DNA from: a virus
UHGV virus genome: UHGV-0081264
DNA length: 14,630 bases
Reading direction: 5' to 3' (one strand)
Shown: piece by piece, positions 5,532 through 12,773 of the stretch
How positions within the stretch are numbered: the first letter of the stretch is position 1
Layout of the letters: each line of letters starts with the position of its first letter
Notes under the pieces: generated by a model
The model's database searches: none
Seen by the model: the letters and a program-made list of their open reading frames with translations, nothing else
Told to the model about the DNA's origin: nothing
Position numbers and translations under genes: made by a program

Positions 5532-5999
5532 TCATCGCGACAGCGCTGACCATATCGTGCCACCTGGCCGAAGACTCTTCTTCAGTTCCTCGGACACAAC
5601 ATCTGAGATCGCTTTTACCATTTCAGGGGATAGCTTCACGCCGGTCTTAATTTCGGGACAGATGCCAACATTGATGGCATAGCCTTTTCGTGGGTCGTTC
5701 TCTATCCGGCCAAACTGAATATTTACAGAGCCACCAATATAACCACCAGCAGGAACACCAAAGCGCGTATTCACCAGGTGCTTAATGGCGAACTCCTGCC
5801 CTTCAGCGGTCAGGAAGGTGTAATAATTTTCCTTTTGATACTCCGTCGCGGTATGGCGTGTTTCAGCGAATCCCAGCTCTAGAAGCTCAGCAGCACCAGA
5901 TTTGGCTGGCAGATCACCAGACTGAAGCGCGCCACGGAAAAACAGCGCATACAGAACATCCGTCGCCGCGCCGGACAACGTGATAATTTTATGACCCAT
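5532..5999 (-). CDS. Hypothetical protein, 155 aa, cos-proximal accessory gene
   Basis: ATG start with an AAGGAA Shine-Dalgarno about 9 nt upstream. A 3' hairpin (5514..5529) follows 3 nt after the stop. I do not recognise the protein. Confidence 0.6.
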   Translation of the reverse strand: MGHKIITLSGAATDVLYALFFRGALQSGDLPAKSGAAELLELGFAETRHTATEYQKENYYTFLTAEGQEFAIKHLVNTRFGVPAGGYIGGSVNIQFGRIENDPRKGYAINVGICPEIKTGVKLSPEMVKAISDVVSEELKKSLRPGGTIWSALSR

Positions 6000-6264: not shown

Positions 6265-6525
6265 ATGTCAGAAGGTTTTGGTTTAAAAGAAAAGGTTGAG
6301 CAGTTAGAAAAAGAATTAGCCGTACAAAAAATAGCAAATCAGCTTGCTTTTGGAGCACTAATTAAAGCAGTTAATGAGCTGTACCCGAACAAAGATTTAT
6401 ATGATGGGTTGACAAAATTTGTCCAGGAAAAACTTGATCCTGAACGTGTTAAAAACATCCCTAATCTTCACGAGGCCTTTCTAGAAGCTGCGAAAATACT
6501 GAGGACTGACGCATCTCCTGAATAA
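6265..6525 (+). CDS. Hypothetical small protein, 86 aa, plus strand
   Basis: ATG start with an AAGGAA Shine-Dalgarno 7 nt upstream, AT-rich, opposite orientation to the phage late operon. Its 3' end overlaps a minus-strand small ORF. Confidence 0.45.
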   Translation: MSEGFGLKEKVEQLEKELAVQKIANQLAFGALIKAVNELYPNKDLYDGLTKFVQEKLDPERVKNIPNLHEAFLEAAKILRTDASPE

Positions 6526-6619
6526 TTTTATCAACAAAGGCAGTTGTGTCCTCTTGCTTTTCATTCACAATGCATGTGACTGCCTTTTCTAAAGCTGTAA
6601 TTCGTTCTTCAAGTGTCAT
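6461..6619 (-). CDS. Hypothetical small protein, about 52 aa (MTLEERITALEKAV...)
   Basis: ATG at 6619 preceded by AGGAGT about 5 nt upstream. The track's longer version starts at 6643. An operator-like repeat array lies immediately upstream. Convergent overlap with the 6265..6525 ORF, so one of the two may be spurious. Confidence 0.3.
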   Translation of the reverse strand: MTLEERITALEKAVTCIVNEKQEDTTAFVDKIIQEMRQSSVFSQLLERPRED

Positions 6620-6649
6620 ACCCACTCCTGTCATTGGCTTCAAAATGAT

Positions 6650-6730
6650 AAACCCCGCATTTGCAAGTCCTATTTATACCCCGCAGGGGATAAAAACCAT
6701 ATTATCCGCTTGCGGGGATAACCATTATCA
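6650..6730. promoter_or_regulatory. Array of three CCCCGCA-core palindromic or half-palindromic sites
   Basis: Plus strand reads ATAAACCCCGCA (site 1), TTTATACCCCGCAGGGGATAAA (site 2, near-palindrome) and, in reverse, TTATCCCCGCAAGCGGATAA (site 3, palindromic TTATCC/GGATAA ends). Lies between the stop at 6760 and the start at 6619. Confidence 0.4.
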
Positions 6731-6759
6731 AGCCCACCAGTAGATGGGCTTTGTAATGG

Positions 6760-7017
6760 CTACTTCGCTTTTGCTTCCGCTCGCTTACGCCGGCGCTCTT
6801 CTTTCCTCTCGGCTTTTGCCATGTCCATGAATGCCTGCATGATCGAGTTCCGCATCATGTAGCTAACAAAGTGATGATTGACACAGCCGTTGAGGCGCAG
6901 CTGCTCGCCAAACTCATCCACCGAGGCCAATGCTTCCATCATGCCCTTCTCGCCTTTCATGAACTCTGAGAAGTCGCGCCCCGCTCTGGAGGCGCATTCT
7001 ATTATTCGGGTGCTCAT
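6760..7017 (-). CDS. Hypothetical small protein, about 85 aa, translationally coupled to the KilA-N gene
   Basis: ATG at 7017..7015 sits immediately after the upstream TGA (TGATCATG). Lys/Arg/Glu-rich C-terminus. The track's longer version (start 7077) overlaps the upstream gene in another frame. Confidence 0.45.
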   Translation of the reverse strand: MSTRIIECASRAGRDFSEFMKGEKGMMEALASVDEFGEQLRLNGCVNHHFVSYMMRNSIMQAFMDMAKAERKEERRRKRAEAKAK

Positions 7018-7019
7018 GA

Positions 7020-7748
7020 TCAGGCCGCCGCATAGAGCAATTTCATCTGCCCTTTCACCGGGAATGCCGACATGCAACGCGCTTCGAAATCACGATAATC
7101 AGAGCACCCATTGGCAATGCTGGTAACGGCAATGATCTGTCGCTCAACCAATGTCAGCGCGTCAGGTTTAAGGTGCTGATGGATTTTGTCTCCCGCAGCC
7201 AGCCGTCTTTTAACCTCTGCATATACTTCTGGTGGTAATACCTGGCCATATACCCACTTGGCACTGATCATCCCAAATAGTGCGGGGCGACGACCTGGTC
7301 GATGACGGGGCAGCCCTGACATTTTGAACATCGCAGAATAAAACGGATCGCTAAACCTCTTTTCCCATGGCTGAGATTTATCCAGAAGGAAAATAGCCTT
7401 TATTCTTTCATCGTCGATATGATGAACGGAACCCTGAATGATTGCGTCAATTTGCTCATCACACCAGATCTCAAAATCTACAGAAAGCCATCGAGCAAAT
7501 CTGACCGCCAGCTTTGGGTGAAGCCATGTTCCGCCGCCACGGTCTTTGCGAGCGCGGCTGGTTTTTACATATGTGATATTCCCATATCTACTCTTTAACG
7601 CCTCGATGTAACGGACAGTCTCAGGAAGCCTAAGCCACTGAGCCGGCTCCTTGTTGAACTTGTCAGCTGCCGCAGTCGCGTCAAACCAGCCATCGTCAGA
7701 AAAACGCATGGGATGGCCTTCGAAATCAATCGGGATGATATTGGACAT
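7020..7748 (-). CDS. KilA-N domain protein
   Basis: Likely start ATG at 7748 (MSNIIPIDFEGHPMRF...) with AAGGT about 7 nt upstream; the track extends to a GTG at 7823. The GGTWLHPKLAVRFARWLSVDFEIWCDEQI segment fits the KilA-N/APSES-type motif as I recall it. Confidence 0.7.
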   Translation of the reverse strand: MSNIIPIDFEGHPMRFSDDGWFDATAAADKFNKEPAQWLRLPETVRYIEALKSRYGNITYVKTSRARKDRGGGTWLHPKLAVRFARWLSVDFEIWCDEQIDAIIQGSVHHIDDERIKAIFLLDKSQPWEKRFSDPFYSAMFKMSGLPRHRPGRRPALFGMISAKWVYGQVLPPEVYAEVKRRLAAGDKIHQHLKPDALTLVERQIIAVTSIANGCSDYRDFEARCMSAFPVKGQMKLLYAAA

Positions 7749-7897
7749 CGTATTTACCTTTTTGGTGATATGAGCCAGTTCTCGCAGACATGGACAGCCC
7801 AAGAGCGGCACGATGTAAGCCACCGTCCTGTCTCTGTCTCATATCCCGAAAAGCTCTTGGTTGATATGCGCACGAGAATGCGCGGTTTACTGCGGAC

Positions 7898-7924
7898 ATA
7901 AAAAAGCCCCGCATAGGCGAGGCT
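7898..7924 (-). terminator. Intrinsic terminator (minus strand) just after the peptidase stop
   Basis: Minus-strand AGCCUCGCC-uaug-GCGGGGCU stem (one U·G wobble) followed by UUUUUUAUG. Confidence 0.6.
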
Positions 7925-7942: not shown

Positions 7943-8845
7943 TTAAGACTGGATATTCCAAATCATTGCGTTACCGTTATGATTTTCAATGATTTTTGCC
8001 AGTGGTGCTCCACCAAAAGAATGCATGTAGCTGTGATGTATAGTCAAAACCAAATCTTGAAGTACTTGATCACTTTCAAGTTCGGTAACATTCAACCCAA
8101 TTTTCTGCGCCTTATCAAAATGAATATGACGCGAGTGGGTATAGGTTGTGTGATGGTTGTTTAACTCTGAACAAACATGTGTTGCTTTTGATTCTGCCTC
8201 AGGATCATTATCAAACATGCCTGTCATAAGCCAATGCTTAACAATCTCATTTGCCCATTTGATTGCTTTCTCACACTCGCCGATGATCGTCGGGTTTAGC
8301 TTTTGAAGAATGAACTGCCACATCTGAACAGCTGCGGGATTTTGAAAAATTTCCGTCTGCGCACGATTCCATTCTTCAATGATGGCATGGGTGGAGAAAC
8401 CGTTGAACTGAGGATCAATTGGGCCAATGTTGGACTGTTTACCCATGATGATTTCATTGGCACAACATGCAAGCATAGTTCCGCAGGACATTGAAATCAT
8501 AGGAACAATTGCTCTGATGTTAGTTCCAAACTTCGACCTTAAGTAATGCCCGATTGATTCCAAAGCGGCAATATCACCACCTGGAGTATGAAGTATCAAA
8601 TCCAACCCTTTTGATACATCTAAACCATTGATGGCTGTCATCAACCCGTTCTTATCATCATCAGTCATCTGAGTAAGATGGCGTACTTCTGCACCACCAT
8701 GCTGTAACCACCCTGAGTAATATGTGATTACATTTCTTCCAGTATGATTCGAAAGTTGAGATAAGTATTTACGGCGAACCTCATCCATAGGACTTTTATG
8801 GGCGAGAGCCGTTATCTCGCCCAGTACGTCGCTCCAATTAGGCAT
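7943..8845 (-). CDS. ClpP/S49-fold serine peptidase, SDH-family-like, 300 aa
   Basis: ATG start 3 nt after the upstream ORF's stop (coupled). LILHTPGGDIAALESIG resembles the ClpP/SppA oxyanion-loop motif, and PMISMSCGTMLA resembles the nucleophile region. AT-rich relative to the head genes. Confidence 0.7.
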   Translation of the reverse strand: MPNWSDVLGEITALAHKSPMDEVRRKYLSQLSNHTGRNVITYYSGWLQHGGAEVRHLTQMTDDDKNGLMTAINGLDVSKGLDLILHTPGGDIAALESIGHYLRSKFGTNIRAIVPMISMSCGTMLACCANEIIMGKQSNIGPIDPQFNGFSTHAIIEEWNRAQTEIFQNPAAVQMWQFILQKLNPTIIGECEKAIKWANEIVKHWLMTGMFDNDPEAESKATHVCSELNNHHTTYTHSRHIHFDKAQKIGLNVTELESDQVLQDLVLTIHHSYMHSFGGAPLAKIIENHNGNAMIWNIQS

Positions 8846-8848
8846 AAA

Positions 8849-9049
8849 TCAGTACGTGTAAAGTTGATGACTTGTAGTTTGGTTTTGCTTCGATTGTGTA
8901 GCGGTACCTTGTGAGTACCAAACACCTGTGTTTCCACTCGTACTAGTTTGCTGTGCCATTACACGAGAAGCGAAGTTGTTAACAGTTTCACCAGTCAACA
9001 TTTCTGCCGGTTTGATATTGTAAACATCGTAGAACTCAGCTGGGGTCAT
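8849..9049 (-). CDS. Hypothetical small protein, 66 aa, first gene of the peptidase operon
   Basis: ATG start with GGAG about 8 nt upstream. Ser/Thr/Gln-rich. Its stop is 3 nt before the peptidase ATG. Confidence 0.55.
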   Translation of the reverse strand: MTPAEFYDVYNIKPAEMLTGETVNNFASRVMAQQTSTSGNTGVWYSQGTATQSKQNQTTSHQLYTY

Positions 9050-10934: not shown

Positions 10935-11576
10935 TTAAAAGTTTAAAGGAACCATAAAGCTACCAGGCTCTGCACCAGCTTCTTTATTTATTTCTTTACG
11001 GATTACCTCATTAATCTGAAAAGCCTCATTGTATACTTTTTCTAAGTTAATTGACGCCTTCATATTATAGTATGTTTTTTCCTCACAAACATATAACCTT
11101 ATCGGATATGGCCTAGGGTTGATTGCCTTCCAGTGGGAGATCACAAAATTATAAACTGCAATACCATGACCTTTCATCTTCCCTGCTGTAACATCAATGT
11201 TTAGCTGATCTAAATACTCATCGAAGTGTTGCAAGGTGTTTCTCACCCTCACGGAATTAATTTCCTTAATTTCAATATCTTTTATTTTTTCTTGAAGGTA
11301 ATTACTTCGCTCAATATGCAATCTGAATTGTTCAGGGGATTCTTCCCTAGTCTGATTTTTAGGAACTGCGATTAGTTTCTTGACGTTAGCCGCATCTGAA
11401 AGAATACTATTTATTAATATATGAATATTGTAATCAATTTTAAAGTAGTAACCAGCATCAGGAAGTGGTGTCTCATGAAAGAGCTCTTCACAGCGTGTTT
11501 TTATCGAATGAGTTAACAACCATAATTCGTGCAAATAAATAAAATTAAGTTTCATTTGCTCAAAGGTTTTTGACAT
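10935..11576 (-). CDS. Hypothetical protein, 213 aa, AT-rich accessory gene between Q and the holin
   Basis: ATG start with GGAG about 9 nt upstream and its own terminator downstream. Strongly AT-rich, with Lys/Ile/Asn/Tyr-rich composition. I do not recognise the protein. Confidence 0.6.
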   Translation of the reverse strand: MSKTFEQMKLNFIYLHELWLLTHSIKTRCEELFHETPLPDAGYYFKIDYNIHILINSILSDAANVKKLIAVPKNQTREESPEQFRLHIERSNYLQEKIKDIEIKEINSVRVRNTLQHFDEYLDQLNIDVTAGKMKGHGIAVYNFVISHWKAINPRPYPIRLYVCEEKTYYNMKASINLEKVYNEAFQINEVIRKEINKEAGAEPGSFMVPLNF

Positions 11577-11905
11577 AGCGAACTCTCCTTTTCAATAGTC
11601 CGCTTTTATAGCATTTACATAAGGGGCCTGTGAATTACTATTCTGTTGCTTACCACACTCTCGCAGTGGCCGCGCTCATGCCTTTGAGACCGTAGTCAGG
11701 GGTATCTCATGAATCCCTCACCTCTAACCGGAGAACGATTGGCGATCGTTCTGGAGTACCGGCACACCTCTTCTTTATTAACCCTAACCAGTGTGTGTTG
11801 CAGTTCGTACCTGCATCTGGCTCTCATGGAGACTCGGGACCGCATCACGACTGCGGATTTGCCTATCGGCTGCGGTCTATCCGTTTACTGGTGCATTTTC
11901 TTACC

Positions 11906-11945
11906 CTCCAGAAACGTAAAAGCCCCGGCAAACGCAAGGGCTACA
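11906..11945 (-). terminator. Terminator-like hairpin plus vestigial RBS and start; partial duplicate of the element at 12670..12703
   Basis: Minus-strand AGCCC-uugcguuugcc-GGGGCU followed by UUUACGUUUCUGGAGGG then ATGcaccagTAA. The 24/25-nt core CCTCCAGAAACG(T/C)AAAAGCCCCG is shared with 12665..12689. Confidence 0.4.
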
Positions 11946-12033
11946 AGAAGAACCAGCCCATGAGACTAGCGACATAACCCTATGCTTGATATTGTTAAAT
12001 CGCCAAATGTAACAATTAAATTCGGGAAAATTT

Positions 12034-12480
12034 ATGAGCAATTATTCGGATCTTCTTCAGGCAATAAAACTAAGAGTTTGCCAAAACAACAACATACCTA
12101 TTCCCTCTCTCACTGGCTCAGGCAGTTATCAGGCAAGGCAAGTATGGAACCGTATTGCGCAAATATTTACACTAGAATGCATACTAGCGGCACACAGAAA
12201 TGAATACGGCTCCGTTTTCGTTCCACTTGAAAATGAAAAAGCACTTCATCACATAATTTTTCTAAAAACAAAGTGGAATTTGGCAGAGATCAGAACTCTT
12301 TCTTTAAATGACTCACTCTTTATCATTGCAGAAATGTTCCGTTCAGACGCAATCCCACCAGATGCAAAGGTCTTTATGGAGTCGGTGCGCATACCTGAGC
12401 CTATTGCTTATCCACTAGAGGACTTTTCAGATGAGGACTGGGATCCCAAGGGAAACTCAGTTTTCCTTCAAAGCCATTAG
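12034..12480 (+). CDS. Hypothetical protein, 148 aa, plus strand
   Basis: ATG start with a weak GGGAA Shine-Dalgarno. Candidate sigma70 promoter upstream (TTGATA-N18-TAACAAT, about 11958–11990) and a strong plus-strand terminator about 35 nt downstream. AT-rich. Confidence 0.5.
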   Translation: MSNYSDLLQAIKLRVCQNNNIPIPSLTGSGSYQARQVWNRIAQIFTLECILAAHRNEYGSVFVPLENEKALHHIIFLKTKWNLAEIRTLSLNDSLFIIAEMFRSDAIPPDAKVFMESVRIPEPIAYPLEDFSDEDWDPKGNSVFLQSH

Positions 12481-12661
12481 CAGACATCTGCTCTAATTCT
12501 GCAGAAATTTCATTGAGCCGCTCTTCAAGAGCGGCCTTTTCTTTTCCCAAAATGTTGAAGCGTGCCAGGTACAGTCTTTGCTGCCCCAACCAGTCTTCAA
12601 GCTGTTCAGGTGTTAGCCCTGGATTATAAAAATGAGGCTGATGATTTTCCTGCTTGGGCAT
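12401..12661 (-). CDS. Hypothetical small protein, about 87 aa (MPKQENHQPHFYNPGLTPEQLEDWLG...)
   Basis: ATG at 12661 with GGAGG 4 nt upstream, directly after the tR'-like terminator. Its 3' end overlaps the plus-strand 148-aa gene by about 80 nt, and the plus-strand terminator hairpin lies inside it, so it may be spurious. Confidence 0.3.
   Translation of the reverse strand: MPKQENHQPHFYNPGLTPEQLEDWLGQQRLYLARFNILGKEKAALEERLNEISAELEQMSANGFEGKLSFPWDPSPHLKSPLVDKQ
12517..12546 (+). terminator. Intrinsic terminator (plus strand) for the 148-aa gene
   Basis: GCCGCTCTT-c-AAGAGCGGC perfect palindrome (12517..12535) followed by CTTTTCTTTTCC. Confidence 0.65.
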
Positions 12662-12669
12662 ACATCCTC

Positions 12670-12703
12670 CAGAAACGCAAAAGCCCCGCACGATGGCGAG
12701 GCT
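12670..12703 (-). terminator. Intrinsic terminator (minus strand), tR'-like, downstream of Q
   Basis: Minus-strand GCCUCGCC-aucgu-GCGGGGC stem (one U·G wobble) followed by UUUUGCGUUU. Same stem sequence as the terminator at 7898..7924. Confidence 0.55.
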
Positions 12704-12773
12704 CCTTAAAATCATTTACTGCCAGTGCATACAACAATGGCACAATATCAGATTTACATGAAATATATGCGTT
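12704..12773 (-). promoter_or_regulatory. Candidate late promoter region (pR'-like) between Q and the tR'-like terminator
   Basis: Positional inference only: AT-rich 70-nt gap directly after the Q stop and before a terminator. Possible -35/-10 hexamers (TTGTAT / TTTTAA) cannot be fixed by eye. Confidence 0.25.

Follow-up and report, generated by a model that had tools for sequence, protein, structure and literature searches.

Bro/KilA-N-type proteins are among the commonest accessory proteins of phages, and the few that have been characterized include antirepressors, host-killing proteins, and abortive-infection defenses. In a 14,630-nucleotide (nt) stretch of the virus genome UHGV-0081264 (here called the window), a gene for such a protein is followed at once by a gene for a protein of 85 amino acids (aa), and the locus raises the question of whether these are two genes and, if so, what the small protein does for its neighbor. 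We conclude that the feature itself is an ordinary, already annotated accessory cassette of the HK97 type. What is new is the comparative pattern around the small gene, which in our census always accompanies genes of the Bro network, belongs to a pair in which both members are swapped, and encodes a domain that in distant relatives is fused to T5orf172. We regard this pattern as a modest lead. All coordinates are positions in the window, and both genes lie on the minus strand.

Two genes joined by a stop-start junction

The list of maximal open reading frames (ORFs) contains an overlapping pair at this locus, one of 267 aa with a GTG start (7020..7823, -) and one of 105 aa with a TTG start (6760..7077, -). 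Both are only in-frame upstream extensions of the two true genes. Gene 1 (7020..7748, -) runs from an ATG at 7748 to a TGA at 7020-7022 and encodes a protein of 242 aa with the N terminus MSNIIP, the ortholog of HK97 gp73 (HK97p60), in which a KilA-N domain is followed by a P63C domain. Its start is the ATG at 7748 and not the GTG at 7823: the profile of PHROG 1136 aligns residues 1-242 to positions 1-244, the N termini of 23 homologs agree in opening with MSNII, and RefSeq/PGAP calls a 729-nt coding sequence on a 100% identical copy. Gene 2 (6760..7017, -) runs from an ATG at 7017 to a TAG at 6760-6762 and encodes the small helical protein of 85 aa, with the N terminus MSTRII, which belongs to PHROG 875 and is the ortholog of HK97p61. 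The genes meet at TGAtcATG (7015..7022, -), where translation is presumed to be coupled. Read along the minus strand, the junction sequence is ...GCGGCGGCC TGA TC ATG AGC..., with the stop codon at 7022-7020, a spacer of two nucleotides (TC) at 7019-7018, and the start codon at 7017-7015.

This reading of the minus strand confirmed what the original prediction, which was made from the letters alone, had described as an ATG directly behind the KilA-N stop. The same prediction had explained the overlapping 267-aa and 105-aa frames as two genes rather than a frameshift, and the homologs bear it out. The TGAnnATG junction was present in 90 of 92 loci with this gene pair, and most records of HK97-type phages, as well as RefSeq, annotate two coding sequences; a 2025 record of mEp234, for example, labels them "KilA-N-P63C" and "hypothetical protein." A single continuous ORF across both genes, which had been proposed as the observation to look for in other genomes, was found nowhere among 137 clusters of small-protein homologs and 1133 clusters of KilA-N+P63C homologs. 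None of the 137 clusters contained a homolog longer than 139 aa. The longer ones were 3' read-throughs or upstream start calls, none was fused to a complete KilA-N protein, and a singleton of 123 aa (P0001) joined the small ORF only to the last residues of the ORF11CD3 domain of a different upstream partner. Likewise, the small domain was attached to no KilA-N+P63C homolog in the 1133 clusters, and the C-terminal motif of that family was the same whether the small gene followed or not.

The small ORF is also under selection as a protein. Its ratio of nonsynonymous to synonymous substitution rates (dN/dS) against diverged orthologs was 0.11 and 0.29, counting comparisons with unsaturated dS, which indicates purifying selection. 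Because of these values and a match to PHROG 875 over the full length (residues 1-85 of 85, E = 1.1e-53), we consider the 85-aa ORF a genuine gene rather than one present by chance. The competing explanation, that a single gene was broken by a frameshift or a sequencing indel near 7017-7077 and is now a pseudogene, draws its sole support from the overlap of the maximal ORFs (7020-7823 and 6760-7077), and its probability is close to nil. The identical junction recurs in dozens of independent records, a fused protein is absent from databases of 5.8e9 and 1.84e9 proteins, the small ORF also pairs with other upstream genes, and the KilA-N+P63C family has one common C-terminal motif throughout. We therefore rejected the pseudogene on the grounds of the conserved junction and the absence of any fused homolog.

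Domains and exchangeable partners

The N-terminal part of the gene 1 product is a KilA-N (APSES-like) DNA-binding domain (7434..7727, -; residues 8-105). Its recognition in the original prediction, from the motif GGTWLHPKLAVRFARWLSVDF (residues 72-92 of the 242-aa protein, nt 7473-7535), was upheld by profile search, in which Pfam KilA-N (PF04383) matched over profile positions 4-106 of 107 with 80.2 bits against a gathering cutoff of 23.8 (E = 1.2e-22). What the prediction had missed was the identity of the cassette as HK97-type and a second domain, P63C (PF10546; 43.9 bits against a gathering cutoff of 26.1, E = 3.7e-11), whose core covers residues 117-192 (7173..7400, -) within a helical C-terminal half that reaches approximately residue 235. 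The order of KilA-N and then C-terminal P63C was common to all 24 aligned homologs, and PHROG 1136 matched the whole product (E = 1.6e-122), which is 98.8% identical to the HK97 protein and 99.2% identical to the mEp234 protein. An AlphaFold (AF2) model computed from 24 homologs, with a mean predicted local distance difference test (pLDDT) score of 83.5, consists of an alpha/beta N-terminal domain and an all-helical C-terminal half. The N-terminal domain has the APSES-like alpha/beta DNA-binding fold. It is only 15% identical to the DNA-binding domain of the fungal APSES factors Mbp1/Swi4, which differ further in being eukaryotic cell-cycle regulators with nothing that matches P63C or the small partner. 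Judged by its sequence, the gene 1 product is a Bro/KilA-N network protein that would bind DNA. Its family is much wider than that of the small protein, extending to Pantoea, Yersinia, Xenorhabdus, Gilliamella, Providencia, Alcaligenes, and Acinetobacter, and its genes usually sit between the lysis genes and the terminase. We considered the C-terminal tail (DFEARCM...LLYAAA) as a docking site for the small partner and rejected it, since the tail is conserved family-wide, including at loci that lack the partner.

The homologs of the 85-aa protein, all of approximately that length, come from Enterobacterales. PHROG 875 is a narrow family: an exhaustive profile search of 1.84e9 representative proteins returned 20 matches (representatives at 50% identity). 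Its invariant motifs are ECASRAGRDFSEF and GCVNHHF. AF2 predicted a three-helix bundle (residues 3-20, 26-42, and 48-84), with a pLDDT of 92 for the best model and 66-74 for the other four. The description of the partner as basic holds for the whole protein, with an isoelectric point (pI) of 9.4, but not along its length: the charge is confined to the last 19 residues (pI 11.0), and the stretch of residues 1-66 is slightly acidic (pI 5.5). Searches of Pfam, NCBIfam, and PDB found no relative of the small protein, and the gene 1 product likewise had no NCBIfam model and no meaningful PDB relative by sequence search. A fold search with the small protein was uninformative, returning generic helical bundles only (the McpS ligand-binding domain, designed proteins, and MIT domains). 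A candidate metal site formed by C8, C45, H48, and H49 was rejected because C8 is Ala or Ser in the relatives P0242 and P0252 and C45 is Val in P0254. In the HK97 reference genome (NC_002167.1, locus 1097-1330), the small ORF HK97p61 is 77 aa long and by tblastn departs from the family after residue 54 in a frameshift-like manner, which could be either an old sequencing error or a genuine lesion of HK97.

To characterize the company kept by the small gene, we fetched loci with diverse small-protein queries and determined, for 175 occurrences in total, what kind of ORF has its end at the start of the small gene. Many of these loci are near-identical prophages, so the counts are redundant and do not represent 175 independent events. 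The upstream ORF encoded KilA-N+P63C (type A) in 92 occurrences, nearly all with the 2-nt gap described above, and a 165-aa protein with KilA-N+ORF11CD3 (type B) in 78, with an ATGA overlap in 75 of them. The remaining 5 occurrences had pRha or pRha+ANT upstream, with junctions of -4, -1, or +2 nt. The small gene followed a gene from outside the Bro network in 0 of the 175 occurrences. The type B pair, found in E. coli O157:H7 and in numerous further prophages of E. coli, occupies the slot behind Rz and ahead of the HNH/terminase genes, and its small protein is identical or 97.6% identical to the one studied here. However, its upstream protein has a different C-terminal domain, a KilA-N domain only 22% identical to that of the window protein, and the ATGA overlap in place of TGAnnATG. 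In Klebsiella, the small gene lies between tail genes, where an identical 83-aa small protein is found behind either KilA-N type in the same context, and in Rouxiella, it lies in P22-like immI regions with Arc/Mnt-type genes. In nucleotide alignments, the recombination joint coincides with the start codon of the small gene in Klebsiella, and in E. coli it lies within the first ~6 codons. A Raoultella locus pairs a KilA-N protein of 89% identity with a small protein of 69% identity, from which we conclude that the two genes reassort.

Distant relatives place the small domain in a second arrangement. In P0252 (from Oceanisphaera) and P0254, a PHROG-875-like domain is N-terminal to a T5orf172/MUG113 (GIY-YIG-like) domain. 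The homology was supported by HMMER (E = 1.7e-5 and 2.2e-4 over 1.84e9 proteins), by hhalign (96% and 95.5%), and by a match to PHROG 875 (2.7e-9). The gene for P0252 adjoins a KilA-N+P63C gene in reversed gene order; a search of IMG/VR for P0252 gave no match. Fused proteins with this architecture but greater divergence are found in Salmonella, E. coli, and Klebsiella; one of them, P0255, matches PHROG 4284. As a separate observation, PHROG-875-like+T5orf172 proteins of PHROG 4284 lie between Rz and the terminase in Salmonella prophages (loci L187-L190) and at locus L104, where the slot additionally carries a HicAB toxin-antitoxin pair.

T5orf172 is reportedly among the domains fused to Bro-N and KilA-N DNA-binding domains. 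As reportedly described by Iyer et al. 2002, we take P63C to belong to the Bro network as well, whose members include KilA-N, Bro-N, pRha, ANT, ORF11CD3, T5orf172, and others. The ten Pfam families listed for the network in PMC10111431 do not include P63C. With its KilA-N+P63C architecture, gene 1 encodes a canonical member, and the domain of the small protein behaves as a further one, being encoded beside three Bro-type proteins and fused to T5orf172 in relatives. It differs from the recognized members in that PHROG 875 has no Pfam or NCBIfam model, is not listed in the network (PMC10111431), and as a rule exists as a polypeptide of its own, not as part of a fusion. We tentatively suggest, while giving this idea less than even weight, that PHROG 875 is an unrecognized domain of the Bro/KilA-N network: a detachable helical targeting or adaptor module that may usually be supplied in trans, by coupled translation with an upstream KilA-N or pRha protein, and occasionally in cis to T5orf172. 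If this were true, these phage regulators would share a general two-component design, in which a Bro-type protein is combined with a swappable small partner (PHROG 875 or a second family, PHROG 24826).

Probable coupling of expression and possible roles

The original prediction had also proposed that the reading frames are tightly coupled, and this stood: the 2-nt gap or the ATGA overlap is conserved across genomic contexts, so that stop and start overlap or lie within a few nucleotides in relatives, and the distance is ≤4 nt after every swap. The Shine-Dalgarno pairing of the small gene was -5.0 kcal/mol in the window, with -1.5 to -2.8 at type B loci and -9.9 to -11.3 for the lysis genes. 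The small protein would be translated chiefly by ribosomes coming directly from termination on gene 1. Within the small ORF, codons 7-24 (6945-7000) had a synonymous diversity of 0.147 versus 0.26-0.43 elsewhere in the gene, and this segment may serve as an anchor for recombination or as a cis element. The minimum-energy RNA fold paired the AUG of the small ORF with codons 18-20 in four of five contexts, with an inner GCGCCUC/GGGGCGC hairpin. Such a fold would fit coupling through unmasking of the start codon, and the sequences are compatible with it (85% of cells paired); the start-sequestering hairpin is a possibility suggested by structure prediction.

As for transcription, a rho-independent terminator lies upstream of the cassette (7897..7924, stem 7905-7924, -), where a scan identified a stem of 8 bp, 6 of them GC pairs, and then TTTTTAT. 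The mEp235 record annotates a terminator at the equivalent site. A simple consensus search found no sigma-70-like promoter between this terminator and the ATG of gene 1 (7904 to 7749, minus strand). Because of the upstream terminator and the lack of a sigma-70-like site before the ATG, we infer late expression by read-through. The cassette would be expressed late in lytic growth, when transcription antiterminated by Q passes through the upstream terminator.

On balance, we lean toward a reading in which the locus is an HK97-type accessory cassette with coupled translation, late read-through expression, and a swappable accessory module. Gene 1 would contribute an N-terminal APSES-like KilA-N DNA-binding domain and a C-terminal helical P63C domain, and gene 2 would contribute a three-helix protein with a highly basic C-terminal helix that is probably not an antidote specific to this KilA-N protein. 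Instead, the small protein may be an interchangeable accessory module; as a cofactor or coeffector, it would work together with the Bro-network protein that happens to lie upstream or would share that protein's target. By analogy with antirepressor-type Bro proteins and BstA, the likeliest role would be in regulatory takeover or in conflict between genetic elements. A lead toward an antirepressor-like role comes from immI-like regions in which pRha/ANT genes precede relatives of the small gene, though this does not amount to membership in the P22-type antirepressor (Ant) group: Pfam searches found no ANT, AntA, or P22_AR domain in the gene 1 product, and there are no Arc/Mnt genes nearby.

Several observations weigh against this reading. 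In a census of 79 IMG/VR loci with KilA-N+P63C, PHROG 875 was downstream in 22 and something else in 54, most commonly the unrelated PHROG 24826 (98-121 aa, acidic). The three types of upstream partner share no single domain, which is hard to fit to one specific protein-protein interface. T5orf172 fusions also stand alone in the same post-Rz slot without a KilA-N neighbor, as P0255 does in Salmonella prophages, the sole contexts examined for it. The Shine-Dalgarno sequence of the small gene is weak, yet several other genes of the window have sequences at least as weak. Covariation in the start-sequestering fold, measured as pair count across 44 distinct sequences, equaled that of shuffled controls, the fold energies were not significant (z-scores +0.1 to -1.1), and the simple promoter scan could miss a promoter that is nonconsensus or activator dependent. 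Finally, no functional study of either protein emerged from literature searches on gp73, P63C, ORF11CD3, the mEp phages, and the protein accessions.

The downstream exchanges bear on the alternatives as well. PHROG 24826 follows KilA-N+P63C copies that are 99.6% identical to the window protein (L201 and L207) and is also present at L096 and other loci. A Salmonella copy of 78% identity occupies the same genomic slot without PHROG 875, and copies in Yersinia and Gilliamella lack it too. Since the small gene swaps its upstream partners and KilA-N+P63C swaps its downstream ones, both positions of the cassette are exchangeable. This might mean that the two genes are functionally independent, with the small ORF merely borrowing upstream translation and transcription and its adjacency to Bro-network genes reflecting shared mosaic junctions in accessory slots. 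The identical small proteins behind different partners, the near-identical KilA-N+P63C proteins that instead precede PHROG 24826, the reassortment in Raoultella, and the solitary T5orf172 fusions would all be expected if that were so. However, chance sharing of junctions does not readily account for the complete restriction of the small gene to Bro-network neighbors across three genomic positions and three partner architectures, for a distant fused homolog that again neighbors a KilA-N+P63C gene in the opposite order, or for a stop-start distance that stays so short after each swap. We therefore consider independence somewhat unlikely, although it is the alternative to which we give the most weight.

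The original prediction had proposed that the partner could be an antidote or a cofactor. P1 KilA is lethal when expressed, and tight coupling would give a toxic KilA-N protein and a neutralizing 85-aa protein a fixed stoichiometry. We nevertheless disfavor the antidote, because the putative toxin commonly lacks the small protein and one small protein serves partners whose C-terminal domains are unrelated. PHROG 875 is missing from most of the KilA-N+P63C loci sampled, near-identical copies included, whereas a type II toxin should never occur without its cognate antidote. In addition, no PADLOC or toxin-antitoxin family matched apart from a motif-level hit to PDC-S22, and no promoter was found that could support autoregulated expression in a lysogen. 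A toxin-antidote pair is accordingly improbable in our estimation, and of the two proposals, it is the cofactor that stays plausible. We assign a similarly low probability to an anti-phage defense of the prophage, in which the KilA-N protein would sense incoming phage DNA and the small protein would be an effector or regulator. Its model is BstA of the Salmonella prophage BTP1, an abortive-infection protein of a lambdoid-type prophage that shares with gene 1 a domain of the KilA-N(-like) type at the N terminus, its location in a prophage, and a two-domain layout (PMC8585504). The cassette is a mosaic accessory element, and PADLOC gave a weak match to the candidate PDC-S22 (E = 9.4e-5), restricted to the 30 residues around the motif GGTWLHP; no other PADLOC defense model matched beyond a chance-level hit to QatB. 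However, the position of bstA is downstream of the repressor gene, lysogens express it at a high level, and it has an element for DNA-based self-immunity, aba (PMC8585504), whereas the present cassette belongs to the late region, where it follows Rz and two further ORFs, behind a terminator and with no evident promoter. Moreover, the C-terminal domain here is P63C, and the BstA paper reports no sequence homology to characterized proteins (PMC8585504).

The favored cassette reading would provide a handle on Bro/KilA-N proteins, namely an HK97-type KilA-N protein with an interchangeable and tightly coupled small partner whose domain is found joined to a GIY-YIG-like one as well. For pursuing it, HK97, mEp234, and K-12 lysogens offer tractable genetics.

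The cassette in a lambdoid late region

The cassette spans 6723-7924 (~1.2 kb) and is 96.5-99.1% identical at the nucleotide level to HK97, HK022, HK446, mEp234, mEp235, mEp506, mEpX1, and mEpX2. The pair in HK97 (gp73/HK97p60 and HK97p61) and those in mEp234, mEp235, mEpX1, mEpX2, HK446, and HK022 have the same gene order, junction, and upstream terminator. They differ in position: HK97-type phages have the cassette immediately behind Rz and ahead of the HNH/terminase module, whereas here a 66-aa ORF and a protease gene intervene and the packaging genes are of the lambda type (Nu1/A). HK97 itself differs in the shorter HK97p61 with its divergent, apparently frameshifted C terminus. Similarity to HK97-type phages begins at 7924, at the terminator, which marks the 5' mosaic boundary, and similarity to both these phages and the O157 type B loci stops at 6723, the 3' boundary. 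Just past the stop codon of the small gene, we read from the sequence a hairpin, AAGCCCA-N8-TGGGCTT (6730..6751, no strand assigned), which is a possible terminator that the scan did not call. The closest terminator-like site downstream on the minus strand is at 6667-6654. Both boundaries coincide with hairpins, as in the discrete mosaic insertions called morons in the sense of Hendrix and Juhala; a moron so defined also brings its own promoter and terminator. As part of the overall explanation that we favor, the region is probably a mobile, nonessential accessory cassette with two genes, carried by lambdoid phages and by other temperate phages of enterobacteria.

The full cassette was present in 18 of 5426 complete E. 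coli genomes, where the small-gene segment alone, with another upstream gene, is far commoner. In E. coli MB06022, a prophage in the chromosome carries a copy that is 100% identical.

The window corresponds to a lambdoid prophage's late region, whose minus-strand order is NinG, the Q antiterminator, ~1.9 kb of ORFs, holin, endolysin, Rz, the 66-aa ORF, and an SDH-type ClpP-like serine protease, followed by the terminator, the KilA-N gene, the 85-aa gene, the hairpin, several small ORFs, and the packaging genes. The latter are lambda-type and comprise a Nu1-like terminase small subunit and ORFs of 640, 68, and 530 aa, which RefSeq labels in the near-identical MB06022 region as a lambda A-type large terminase, a head-tail joining protein (lambda W-sized), and a portal, respectively. 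A search for Rfam RNA families found none across the window.

The protease gene (7943-8845, -) encodes 300 aa (Pfam PF01972, E = 8.4e-23; PHROG 11747) and, together with the 66-aa ORF (8849-9049, -; PHROG 25714), separates Rz from the cassette. Because the cassette directly follows Rz in HK97-type phages, these two genes look like a separate inserted accessory module. The interval from Q to holin (10935-12715), the place where Stx phages carry toxin genes, has an ORF of 213 aa at 10935-11576 (-), one of 104 aa at 12401-12715 (-), and, on the other strand, one of 148 aa at 12034-12480 (+). None of the three had a Pfam match, and the 213-aa ORF also lacked a PHROG match. Beyond the 3' boundary of the cassette, outside the segment shared with HK97, short hairpins and repeats rich in GC cluster at positions 6650-6720 (CCCCGCA..., CCCGCAGGGGATAA, and TTATCCGCTTGCGGGGATAA). 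The segment 5447-6758 contains only hypothetical genes, of 155 aa (5532-5999, -), 86 aa (6265-6525, +), and 60 aa (6461-6643, -), and is 99.3% identical to the cos-proximal region of mEp213 and mEp043, so that the late region in the window is a patchwork of modules from different mEp/HK phages.

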